Shown in pieces: positions 12,654 through 20,870 of a DNA stretch of 64,000 bases. Source of the DNA: Haloarculaceae archaeon (lineage in GTDB: Archaea > Halobacteriota > Halobacteria > Halobacteriales > Haloarculaceae); the NCBI GenBank assembly GCA_036626435.1, contig JAZKRS010000004.1, forward strand, positions 2,517-66,516, in the 5' to 3' direction. The notes beneath the pieces are model-generated. The model was not told the origin of the DNA and ran no database searches. It saw nothing but the letters and a program-made list of their open reading frames with translations. A program made the position numbers and the translations under genes. Position 1 is the stretch's first letter, and every line of letters starts with the position of its first letter.

Positions 12654-12712
12654 GGGGCGAATCCGACGTCAAAGACAGATATTCACGGTTAGAGCGGGAG
12701 TCCACTGACAAG

Positions 12713-12733
12713 CCTCGGGGCTTGACCCCGAGG
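12713..12733 (+). repeat. solo hairpin related to the IS200/IS605 element ends
   Basis: cctcggggcttgaccccgagg is the reverse-complement form of the 21-nt hairpin ccccggggtcaagccccgggg found at both ends of the tnpB element. It carries a paired C>T / G>A change that keeps the stem. The flank ggttgttgaccggcag resembles the left-end flank ggttgaagccgacag. Confidence 0.6.
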
Positions 12734-12764
12734 TTGTTGACCGGCAGTGCACTCGACGGGTCCG

Positions 12765-18939: not shown

Positions 18940-19236
18940 ATGACTGACGCCGACGCGCCTGACGGGTACGAAGCGCAACTGCGGGCAAACCGCGCCGAGA
19001 AAGACCAGTTCTTCGCGGACCATCCCCAGTCGCCGATTCCGCCGGCAGAGCGGGACGGCTTCGACGGCCTCGCGTACTTCGATCCGGATCCCGGGTACCG
19101 CATCGAGGCGACGGCGAGCGTTCACGACGACCCGGAGCCCGTCGAGATGGACACGAGTGACGGGCGGACGGTCCAGTATCTTCGTCCCCTTCCGTGACAA
19201 GACCACCGGCCAGGAGACCTACGAGGGCGGACGGTG
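18940..19236 (+). pseudogene. DUF1684 family gene, 5' fragment (frameshifted, then truncated by IS insertion)
   Basis: The N-terminus ...RAEKDQFFADHPQSPIPPAERDGFDGLAYFDPDPGYRIEA... matches DUF1684. The frame-1 ORF stops at 19195-19197. The family motif FVPFRDKTTGQETYEGGR continues in frame 2 from 19181 and ends at the IS boundary (19236). Confidence 0.7.
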
Positions 19237-19250
19237 AACGCACCCCGGGG

Positions 19251-20492
19251 TCAAGCCCCGGGGCTTCCTGCTTCAACGACGCGCTTTGCATCCACCGCCT
19301 CCCGATGAGGGGTGAACGTAGGGAGCGCAGTCTGCACAGGCGTTGATTCGGAGCGTCCCGCCCCTAACTGTTTCAAACCACGATTGAGAATAGTCTTCGC
19401 TGCATTGAGATCGCGGTCTTCCGTGTGTCCGCACGCTGGACACGAATGCTCGCGTACCCAGATCGGCTTCGCCGTTTCGACACCACAAACCGAACACTCT
19501 TTGGTCGTCCCGCGAGAGTCGACCGTCTCAACGTGTGTGCCGTGCAATTCGCCTTTGTACTTCAGAAGTTCGAGGAACCGCGACCACGCGGCGTCTTGCT
19601 TGTTCTTGGCGTTCTGCCCGGTTTCCAGCATCGGCTTCACATCCAAGTCCTCAACAACCACAACATCGTACTCTTTCACCAGCCACGTCGTCAGTTTGTG
19701 CTGGTAGTCGCGTACCTTCCGCTTGATTTTGCGTTTGGCTCGGGCTACCTGTTGGCGTTGTTTCTCCCAGTTGGCAGAGCCGTGTTCTTTCCGATCGAGT
19801 TTCCGCTGTTCGCGTGCGTAGCGGTCGTACTCGTCGGACAAATCTAACGTATCTACGGACAGGTTTTCAGACGTGTGGATGTAGCTGGTGATGCCGAGGT
19901 CAACACCCACACAGTCTTTGGGGTCAATCTCATCTAGTGACGGTTTCTCGGGTGTGTCTTCCACAGTAGTGACCAGTGAGACGTACCACTCGCCCGTTGT
20001 CTCTTTCTTGAGGATGACCTCATCAATGTCCTCTGCTGGTGGAACGTCGCGTTCTGCCCGGAGTTTGAACCAACCGATCTTTTCGAGTCGGAGTCGCACG
20101 AATCGGTCGTCGCCCGTGTTGTGATCCACGTTCCAGCGACGGGGTTGATTGTACGACACTGACCGAAACTCGCCCGCACCTTGCCACTGCAACCGCCCGA
20201 CGTTGTAGCCTTTGTTTCGACGTTCTTGCAGTGTTTCCAGATCGGTGTATATCTGGCTGATGGCTTGTTGAGCGGCATGTTGTGATGGTTCTGCAAAGGT
20301 CGGCCACTGGTCTGCCCACGTGGTGAGTTTGCCGTGTTGGTCGTACTCTGATGGGCGGTCGTTGTAGTCCGAGTTATAGTAGTCTCGGACGGCGTGGTTG
20401 CGAATCTGCCGAAGGATATTGATCTGGTGCCACGCTTCGCTTGCCACATCGTCGGGCAGGTACGCGCGGAAGCGAAGCGTGTGTTTCACCAT
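19251..20492 (-). CDS. tnpB: TnpB (IS605 OrfB-type RNA-guided endonuclease)
   Basis: 413 aa. RuvC-I VGVDLGITSY, RuvC-II VVVEDLDVK, zinc finger CSVCG...CPACG, RuvC-III DRDLNAAKTI. The stop lies in the loop of the right-end hairpin. Confidence 0.9.
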   Translation of the reverse strand: MVKHTLRFRAYLPDDVASEAWHQINILRQIRNHAVRDYYNSDYNDRPSEYDQHGKLTTWADQWPTFAEPSQHAAQQAISQIYTDLETLQERRNKGYNVGRLQWQGAGEFRSVSYNQPRRWNVDHNTGDDRFVRLRLEKIGWFKLRAERDVPPAEDIDEVILKKETTGEWYVSLVTTVEDTPEKPSLDEIDPKDCVGVDLGITSYIHTSENLSVDTLDLSDEYDRYAREQRKLDRKEHGSANWEKQRQQVARAKRKIKRKVRDYQHKLTTWLVKEYDVVVVEDLDVKPMLETGQNAKNKQDAAWSRFLELLKYKGELHGTHVETVDSRGTTKECSVCGVETAKPIWVREHSCPACGHTEDRDLNAAKTILNRGLKQLGAGRSESTPVQTALPTFTPHREAVDAKRVVEAGSPGA

Positions 20493-20498
20493 GTGTTG

Positions 20499-20618
20499 TT
20501 AGTCGAGCTTTTCGACGGTGAGTTTCAGCTGGTCGCCTTCCTCCAGTTCAAGGCCGTCTCGGACTTCTTCTGGGATCGTGACGACACCCCGTTGTCGTAG
20601 TTTCGGGTAGCATTCCAT
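20499..20618 (-). CDS. AbrB/SpoVT-like small DNA-binding protein inside the IS
   Basis: 39 aa: MECYPKLRQRGVVTIPEEVRDGLELEEGDQLKLTVEKLD (swapped-hairpin motif G-V-V-T-I-P-x-E-V-R...GD). TAA 20499-20501 lies 6 nt upstream of the tnpB ATG. An ATTATA box lies about 33 nt upstream of its ATG. Confidence 0.6.
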   Translation of the reverse strand: MECYPKLRQRGVVTIPEEVRDGLELEEGDQLKLTVEKLD

Positions 20619-20651
20619 CTGTCCAATACTGAACAATACAGACTCAAACAG

Positions 20652-20657
20652 TATAAT
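20652..20657 (-). promoter_or_regulatory. TATA-like box for the AbrB-like ORF/tnpB transcript
   Basis: The minus strand reads gcATTATActg about 33 nt upstream of ATG 20618. Confidence 0.35.
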
Positions 20658-20708
20658 GCTGTCGGCTTCAACCCCGGGGTCAAGCCCCGGGGCAGTCGCC
20701 TTGACCGC

Positions 20709-20870
20709 CTGTACATGGAGCTGGAGACGGTGGCGAGCGTACCTCGTAGCAGGGGGTGTCTCGTCCCGGTCGATGGGTATGCCACGTCGCCACCTACCAT
20801 GTCGGCAGCGCGTGCCGGATCGGAGGCCAGCGTCGAACACGCACTCTGGGAGCGTGGACACCCGTTCGTC
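20709..20870 (+). pseudogene. DUF1684 family gene, degenerate 3' fragment
   Basis: Reads (L)YMELE..., continuing the GGRYxELE family motif broken at 19236. The downstream sequence no longer shows the expected NxAYNPxCAY/PPxEN motifs. The end coordinate is approximate. Confidence 0.35.

Follow-up and report, generated by a model that had tools for sequence, protein, structure and literature searches.

Cas12 descends from TnpB elements, which are under development as compact genome editors. The means by which these elements hold their nuclease in check are only beginning to emerge. Here we describe such an element, an insertion sequence (IS) of the IS200/IS605 family in a 64,000-nucleotide (nt) stretch of DNA from a Haloarculaceae archaeon (contig JAZKRS010000004.1; the whole stretch is referred to as the window), which carries, directly ahead of tnpB, a gene for a 39-amino-acid (aa) protein of AbrB/SpoVT type.

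Altae-Tran et al. (2023, PNAS, PMC10691335) reported archaeal tnpB genes downstream of small AbrB/MazE or ribbon–helix–helix (RHH) genes. In their clade RIIIr-4, the RuvC-III aspartate is replaced by histidine, the C4 zinc finger is absent, and the genes are non-mobile. The locus in the window resembles these RHH/MazE-TnpB systems in the small AbrB/MazE- or RHH-family gene placed directly upstream of an archaeal tnpB, in its patchy distribution, and in the guide-RNA potential at the 3' end of tnpB. Unlike RIIIr-4, however, the window TnpB has the DRDLN motif and the C4 finger, its gene is flanked by transposon ends within an interrupted host gene, and identical small proteins are found at different chromosomal sites and in different contexts. 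Membership in the 'MazE' branch of that study was judged by its main-text description.

In bacterial IS605 elements, it has been reported that the RHH protein Arc binds and represses its native promoter (Moon, Zedaveinyte, Wiegand, and Sternberg, 2026, bioRxiv 10.64898/2026.09.24.754181). The evidence comes from chromatin immunoprecipitation sequencing (ChIP-seq) and reporters, and includes elements with only arc and tnpB. The preprint covers RHH proteins in bacteria only and does not mention AbrB. Like Arc, the window protein is of DNA-binding type and no longer than 50 aa, and it is encoded within IS605-family boundaries, beside tnpB and at the native promoter. In addition, an RHH-like protein occupies the same slot in sister elements of the window IS, and the repression shown for Arc is the role that we propose here. 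Conversely, the window protein is AbrB-like rather than RHH, its host is an archaeon, in which the promoter is of TATA/TFB type and the operon probably leaderless, and its gene is co-directional with and immediately upstream of tnpB, whereas many bacterial elements have arc and tnpA divergent from tnpB.

Haloarchaeal IS605/IS1341-type transposons, among them PATEs and the ISNph and ISHwa series, were described by Dyall-Smith, Pfeiffer et al. (2011, PMC3119063). According to passages of that paper, such elements are tnpB-only and about 1.5 kb long, with near-terminal palindromes (in some cases the same at the two ends), a targeting sequence of 4–6 nt, no target duplication, low copy number and high divergence. 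Terminal-only remnants and small repeats that insert into the palindromes are also described there. The window element is similar in all these respects, and identical near-terminal palindromes are therefore not new. Neither a small upstream gene nor exchangeable regulator cassettes are described in the searched passages of PMC3119063.

A further small archaeal protein, the 'DUF2080 family transposase-associated protein' (NCBIfam NF033496, Pfam PF09853), is named for its association with the transposase (tnpB). One relative of the window IS has a DUF2080 gene in the same slot, whereas the window protein gives no NF033496 match. The structural comparators are the N-terminal domains of AbrB/SpoVT proteins and archaeal AbrB-like proteins (2ro5, 1z0r, 2l66, 5itm, and C68 of pSSVx, 3o27), which are dimeric DNA-binding transcription regulators. 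The profile match extends over strand–strand–helix–strand, including the GD motif. In contrast to these domains of about 50 residues, the window protein has 39 aa and ends after the third strand.

The original prediction knew of no pairing of a small AbrB-type protein with tnpB. This claim of novelty fails, because Altae-Tran et al. (2023), Moon et al. (2026), and NF033496 already describe similar pairs. The novelty lies in the pairing of an AbrB-type protein with a TnpB of canonical, mobile lineage, in the exchange of cassettes with sharp boundaries, and in a minimal 39-aa form of the AbrB fold. The finding extends recent work and overturns nothing.

Results

Almost certainly, the locus is an element of IS1341 type whose AbrB-like gene is genuine and conserved. 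Its features are collected in Table 1. For comparison, 80 loci encoding relatives of the window TnpB (numbered with the prefix L) were taken from haloarchaeal genomes.

The small open reading frame (ORF) scores 31.1 bits against PF04014 (cut-off 24.7) and 32.8 bits against TIGR01439 AbrB (cut-off 28.3). A profile of its relatives, compared with the PDB, gave AbrB/SpoVT folds as all of the top nine matches, including 2ro5, 5itm, 2l66, and 1z0r. A tblastn search located the ORF immediately before tnpB in 34 loci, the window among them; these comprise 33 distinct DNA sequences. Of the 34 copies, 32 retain an ATG and a length of exactly 39 codons; L022 and L044 run past the usual stop. Relative to the window copy, the proportion of replacement differences (pN) is 0.01–0.23 and that of synonymous differences (pS) 0.14–0.86, with a pooled, uncorrected pN/pS of 0.23; thus, synonymous change is near saturation and replacement change is low. 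Database searches returned 78 relatives with a 40-aa query and 352 with an alignment led by a 42-aa sequence. Nearly all of the best 120 of these 352 are 39–44 aa long, and many relatives are already annotated as 'AbrB/MazE/SpoVT family DNA-binding domain-containing protein'. At the places retrieved via the small protein, a member of the window TnpB family lies 5–11 nt downstream in 25/25 cases (one of these tnpB genes is frameshifted). The small ORF is therefore a real gene, under purifying selection and strictly linked to this TnpB clade.

These results bear directly on the original prediction, which described a 39-aa ORF of AbrB/SpoVT type inside the element ends, stopping 6 nt before the tnpB ATG behind a TATA-like box. 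All of this was borne out, the box being TTATAC at 20656–20651. Absence or non-conservation of the ORF in other copies, and profile searches without support for AbrB, had been named there as grounds for abandoning the idea. Both analyses were run: the ORF is kept under selection in other copies, and Pfam, NCBIfam, and PDB profiles support AbrB.

Two candidate readings of the ORF were rejected. Plasmid relatives from Halorussus limi and Halobacterium hubeiense without the ORF looked like a sign of non-conservation, which the wider sample overturned; one of them proved to be 5'-truncated, and no intact clade II locus (see below) other than the second was scored without the ORF. The possibility that the small ORF and tnpB form a conserved read-through fusion was also considered and rejected, as spacing and frame vary among relatives. 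In the window the two are in frame, parted by TAA and 6 nt (two codons), because of a changed upstream ATG and an altered tnpB start: ATT stands at 20625–20627 where most relatives have ATG (42-aa form, MxQMECYP...), with the second ATG remaining, and tnpB begins ATGGTGAAA (20487–20492) rather than ATGAAA.

Ordinary chromosomal AbrB-type genes (...DRGQVTIPKELR...GDEV...), similar to the small protein, lie in the flanks of two relatives (L034, 4459–4539; L011, 502–579). Such genes are a possible source of the DNA-binding domain of the cassette. In L100, a second, unrelated tnpB (397–1752; 25% identity, NADYNAA-type RuvC-III) lies directly upstream of an AbrB-tnpB element; a 45-aa ORF called before it looks spurious.

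The TnpB tree has two clades. None of the 34 clade I loci has a small ORF (32 were scored 'none' and two have too little upstream sequence), and their left-end hairpin lies about 84 nt from tnpB, compared with about 200 nt or more in clade II. The AbrB-like ORF is present in 29 of the 35 scored clade II loci. Elsewhere in clade II the same slot holds other occupants: an unrelated 43–45-aa ORF (MSKRYTVTVPDE.GEWLDDQPHLSPSGLLQKAI...) in four loci, a different RHH-like ORF in L039, and a DUF2080 protein in L033 (NF033496, 56.5 bits). A fifth locus with the 43–45-aa ORF (L024) was excluded from the tree, as it has a stop in tnpB. The clade II loci without a small ORF are L002, which is intact, and L001, which is 5'-truncated. 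The original prediction had placed the ORF in the tnpA position. In the evolutionary sense this does not hold: the ORF occupies an insertion slot, located from the left end to tnpB, which clade I leaves empty.

The 43–45-aa family comprises 24 database clusters, every one labelled 'hypothetical'. Its structural model has an extended N-terminus followed by two helices, and Pfam, NCBIfam, PDB-sequence, and Foldseek searches gave no match for an RHH assignment. An hhalign comparison with CopG gave the expected register with a probability of 3%. The occupant is therefore termed RHH-like only.

The TnpBs beside the RHH-like ORFs nest among those beside AbrB in the tree, and the TnpBs beside alternative occupants are 79–88% identical to the window TnpB. 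The limits of the exchange are seen by comparing the window with L010. The two are 100% identical from TGTAC through GACAGCA, have no similarity over promoter and ORF, and become identical again at the last codon and stop (GACTAAC), on into tnpB. The exchanged unit is thus a cassette with its own promoter. Cassettes of AbrB, RHH-like, or DUF2080 type, each consisting of a promoter and a small ORF, are interchangeable in the slot that separates the left end from tnpB.

In the AbrB cassette, the TATA-like box is followed by three CWGTAT/CAGATG repeats phased at 10 nt (20641–20636, 20631–20626, and 20621–20616), which form a candidate operator. Conservation among 14 close AbrB cassettes is focused on TTAT and the three repeats. 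The TATA box sits 29 nt before the usual first (ancestral) ATG of these cassettes, which suggests a leaderless transcript. Two GTNTCAAAACG repeats, spaced by 11 nt, lie over the start codon of the RHH-like cassette. Each cassette type carries its own phased repeats over the start site.

The element itself is bounded by hairpins. The 23-mer ACCCCGGGGTCAAGCCCCGGGGC occurs in exact copies at 19242–19264 and 20671–20693, in direct orientation, where 100 shuffles gave an expectation of 0 such pairs. The hairpins are on the same strand, with a stem of 8–9 base pairs (bp) and a 5-nt loop, and terminal inverted repeats are absent. In most related loci the left-end hairpin is found in the same place, with compensatory C–G to U–A changes in the stem. 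The genes between the hairpins are on the minus strand. Comparison with related loci places the boundaries at 19234 and 20710, which gives a length of 1,477 bp. The left end has a constant order: unrelated flank, T(G/C)TAC, the conserved AGGCGGTCAAGGCGACT, the hairpin, and TGAAGCCGACAGCA. Similarity among at least 35 related loci begins directly after T(G/C)TAC; this motif flanks the left end in 30 of 34 loci (TGTAC in 25, TCTAC in 5), and bases farther upstream are random. At the right edge, GnGTTCAC or GATTCAC is followed by unrelated sequence in 35/35 loci examined.

Excising 19234–20710 in silico restores the frame of a DUF1684 gene, joining ...ETYEGGR to YMELE..., and positions 67–95 of the profile align unbroken across the junction between R and YMELE. 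Because the profile runs unbroken over the rejoined site, the insertion is precise, 3' of TGTAC, and without target duplication. Precise insertion of this kind, 3' of a short motif, is the signature of single-strand 'peel-and-paste' IS200/IS605 transposition. Within the element there is no tnpA, nor room for one, as the two genes and the ends occupy the whole 1,477 bp. As judged from this gene content, a Y1 (HUH) TnpA would have to be supplied in trans for mobility. The original prediction of a tnpA-less IS200/IS605 element with same-strand hairpins was thus correct; its boundaries (19237–20708) have shifted slightly, and the strand as presented needed correcting to minus. The G+C (GC) content of the element is 56%, against 66% for the whole window, which is consistent with a horizontally moving element.

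TnpB matches OrfB_IS605 and Cas12f1-like_TNB (E about 1e-21) and NCBIfam guided_TnpB (250 bits), and aligns to ISDra2 TnpB, for which a structure has been solved, with E = 2e-29. The RuvC D/E/D residues and zinc finger that had been noted are all present, and the ISDra2 alignment agrees: RuvC-I is VGVDLG, RuvC-II VVVEDL, RuvC-III DRDLNAA, and the C4 finger has the form CSVCG...CPACG (CxxC...CxxC). The protein thus looks intact. There is no second tnpB in the window.

The predicted guide-RNA scaffold is supported by covariation: 98.7% of 1,439 cells are paired, compared with 32–49% in controls with the partners slid, and 15 of 40 pairs have compensatory changes, compared with 2–3 in the slid controls. 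Its counterparts are the 'sotRNAs' of Halobacterium IS1341 genes. An Rfam scan gave nothing at gathering score; its sole match, the weak, sub-threshold sot2652 at 19229–19302, is a lead and not evidence. The homing model of IS200/IS605 TnpB is the established basis for reading the right flank as guide. By analogy with that model, the flank past the right end (CGTCCGCCC...) would be the guide, identical to the sequence beside TGTAC in the empty site, and the predicted target is the transposon-adjacent motif (TAM) TGTAC followed by CGTCCGCCCTCGTAGG. Such a guide would send TnpB to re-cut the emptied TGTAC donor site, and homologous repair of the cut would restore the element.

Table 1. Coordinates of the element, its parts, and associated features in the window
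Feature	Coordinates	Strand	Basis
Whole IS200/IS605 (IS1341-type, tnpB-only) element, non-autonomous	19234..20710	-	Conserved edges in relatives, DUF1684 rejoining, GC
Target motif/TAM 5'-TGTAC-3'; host sequence, DUF1684 codons TAC-AT on + strand	20711..20715	-	Flanks of 34 loci
Outer left-end segment AGGCGGTCAAGGCGACT	20694..20710	-	Kept in clade II loci; 100% identical in L010
Left-end subterminal hairpin	20671..20693	-	Exact copy of right-end hairpin
Inner left-end segment TGAAGCCGACAGCA, left border of exchangeable cassette	20657..20670	-	Nearly invariant in clades I and II
Cassette promoter and candidate operator	20616..20656	-	14 close cassettes compared
AbrB/SpoVT-like gene, 39 aa, MECYPKLRQRGVVTIPEEVRDGLELEEGDQLKLTVEKLD and stop	20499..20618	-	PF04014, TIGR01439, and PDB profile matches; conservation
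tnpB, 413 aa, RNA-guided nuclease	19251..20492	-	Intact RuvC D/E/D and C4 zinc finger
Guide-RNA (omega-RNA/sotRNA-like) scaffold, takes in right-end hairpin, overlaps tnpB 3' end	19234..19364	-	Covariation
Right-end subterminal hairpin	19242..19264	-	Exact repeat of left-end hairpin, conserved in relatives
Right-end terminal motif GCGTTCAC, cleavage-site end	19234..19241	-	Abrupt end of conservation, 35 loci
Predicted guide-encoding flank CGTCCGCCCTCGTAGGTCTC	19214..19233	-	Homing model and boundaries
DUF1684 host gene, interrupted and decayed, 5' part; resumes at 20711	18940..19233	+	PF07920 match, profile positions 2-44
Solo hairpin of the same family, GCCTCGGGGCTTGACCCCGAGGT	12712..12734	+	Two compensatory stem changes relative to the 23-mer

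Discussion

We propose that the 39-aa protein is a promoter-bound transcriptional autorepressor of the abrB-tnpB operon, a role that we consider probable though by no means secure. The proposal follows the example of Arc, which represses native IS605 promoters (Moon et al., 2026). As an oligomer, the protein would bind in its own cassette, at the phased repeats that follow the TATA box and precede the transcription start, and this binding would repress the leaderless abrB-tnpB transcript. TnpB would thereby be kept low in a self-limiting manner, as experiments have shown for Arc in bacterial IS605 elements. In favor of this role, the gene is under selection, is linked to tnpB, and is swapped together with its own promoter for other small DNA-binding folds. 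In addition, a chain of 39 aa leaves no room for a toxin-binding tail or an extra protein-binding region. Of the three roles suggested in the original prediction, regulation of tnpB transcription is the one that the evidence favors; an antitoxin-like remnant and a cargo gene are not favored.

Several observations weigh against repression by the small protein. DNA binding and repression are carried over by analogy from the RHH protein Arc and not from an AbrB-type partner of TnpB, and Altae-Tran et al. (PMC10691335) favored a toxin–antitoxin reading of AbrB/RHH-TnpB pairs. The mean information content of the promoter (1.36 bits) is barely higher than that of third codon positions (1.25 bits), and the candidate operator rests on 14 related sequences. 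The protein also falls short of the complete strand–strand–helix–strand–strand domain of about 45–50 residues: the AbrB alignment covers chain residues 11–39 of 53–55-residue domains. As no strand follows the third, the canonical swapped-hairpin unit cannot be built from this chain in unmodified form. The AlphaFold monomer has a pLDDT of 73 and one helix, with no strands assigned, and a Foldseek search with this model gave no significant match. Its oligomeric fold and its DNA binding are therefore assumed. The non-significant Foldseek neighbors include homodimers of ~43-aa half-barrel peptides (7dxs, 7dxr), the AbrB-like 5itm, and C68; these are a lead as to how so short a chain might assemble, and nothing more. 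Finally, expression of the window copy may differ from that of its relatives because the usual upstream ATG has been lost.

Another explanation, which we consider unlikely, is a toxin–antitoxin-like pair, in which direct contact of the small AbrB protein with TnpB, or with the TnpB–RNA complex, neutralizes a harmful nuclease, as Altae-Tran et al. (2023) proposed for archaeal RHH/MazE-TnpB pairs. The AbrB/MazE fold is typical of type II antitoxins, the bicistronic arrangement with the small gene first and a 6-nt gap resembles that of antitoxin–toxin operons, and the nearest chromosomal relatives in the flanks are VapB/MazE-type AbrB in look (L034, 4459–4539). A co-folding model has also been published for an RHH-TnpB pair (PMC10691335). 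However, the 39-aa chain is smaller than the DNA-binding domain alone and, unlike type II antitoxins, has no toxin-binding region beyond it. AbrB, RHH-like, and DUF2080 proteins replace one another beside closely similar TnpBs that are intermixed in the tree, and this interchange of unrelated folds disfavors a co-adapted TnpB interface. Intact TnpBs without a partner exist in L002 and throughout the scored clade I loci, so that tnpB is maintained without the small gene. Moreover, the published clade is marked by a His-substituted RuvC-III, loss of the zinc finger, and lack of mobility, none of which applies to the window TnpB. Because the folds substitute for one another, partnerless TnpBs exist, and no tail is present, neutralization of TnpB is less likely here than autorepression.

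Improbable, too, is an accessory role, in which the protein binds the element ends, a TnpA acting in trans, or host promoters and modulates excision, integration, or host genes rather than its own promoter. The gene lies inside the element and adjoins the left-end hairpin, Arc homologs gave weaker off-target genomic peaks (bioRxiv 10.64898/2026.09.24.754181), and passages of PMC3119063 indicate that haloarchaeal IS1341 elements move despite scarce intact tnpA. Conversely, clade I has the same ends and hairpins without a small protein, so that the ends do not need it. The cassette promoter and repeats change together with the type of protein, and AbrB folds bind double-stranded DNA, not single-strand hairpins. 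The last alternative, a passenger remnant or chance ORF without function, such as a truncated antitoxin fragment, could draw on the shortness of the chain, its truncation relative to the AbrB domain, and the start codon lost upstream in the window copy, but it is effectively refuted by the conservation of length and frame across the 34 loci, the selection on the ORF, the uniform size of its closest database relatives, and its strict tnpB linkage.

If the protein does act as a repressor bound at the promoter, elements would have acquired control of TnpB encoded by themselves with no fewer than three unrelated small folds, and such control would also operate in archaea, with their eukaryote-like promoters. 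The cassettes would then be a natural set of probably orthogonal repressor–operator pairs of ~40 aa for haloarchaeal genetics. The sharp cassette boundaries offer a clean test of the two published readings, transcriptional repression and toxin–antitoxin.

A broader picture can be sketched, which we offer tentatively and regard as doubtful. Archaeal TnpB transposons may possess a plug-in regulatory slot, in which promoter-operators with micro-proteins of unrelated fold are swapped by recombination at fixed boundaries. This could provide each lineage with orthogonal self-limiting control, or with 'immunity' in trans against sibling copies. The 39-aa protein would then be a strand–strand–helix–strand half-barrel that homo-oligomerizes into a cradle-loop barrel, a DNA-binding fold so minimal that its other known examples are mainly designed peptides.

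Additional Observations

The interrupted DUF1684 gene is a decayed pseudogene, damaged beyond the IS insertion. Profile positions 45–66 and 96–139 of PF07920 are missing: a frameshift or deletion near 19180 removes the former, and there is no profile match beyond position 95.

The intergenic space that holds the solo hairpin (12712–12734) separates two convergent genes. After the hairpin comes TGTTGACCGGCAG, similar to the inner left-end segment. A related element probably left the hairpin behind, either as a relic or as a terminal-only remnant of the kind reported in passages of PMC3119063.

The left ends of the relatives vary in several ways. In L012, L016, L026, L041, and L047, insertions of ~50–120 nt are found precisely in the loop of the left-end hairpin, which in these loci lies ~200–330 nt upstream of tnpB. 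The insertions have inverted-repeat-like ends (TCGTNCGGAAATC...TCTCGAACCAC), and the elements that carry them belong to different genera. A similar appearance is shown by SMR-A, small mobile repeats that have been reported to target such palindromes in Haloquadratum. In L014, L019, L021, L028, and L030, the hairpin is reduced to GCCCCGGGGT, the loop and one arm being deleted, with the small ORF and tnpB kept; these copies are probably immobilized. The L034–L041 group has an additional conserved segment of ~70 nt between the inner left-end segment and the cassette promoter, and L035 has two tandem left-end-type hairpins, ~354 and 271 nt upstream of tnpB. Finally, L022 (uncultured archaeon A07HR60) and L044 (Candidatus Nanosalinarum sp. 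J07AB56) contain the same element with the same flanks, and this sharing across very different metagenome-assembled organisms suggests mis-binning or recent transfer.

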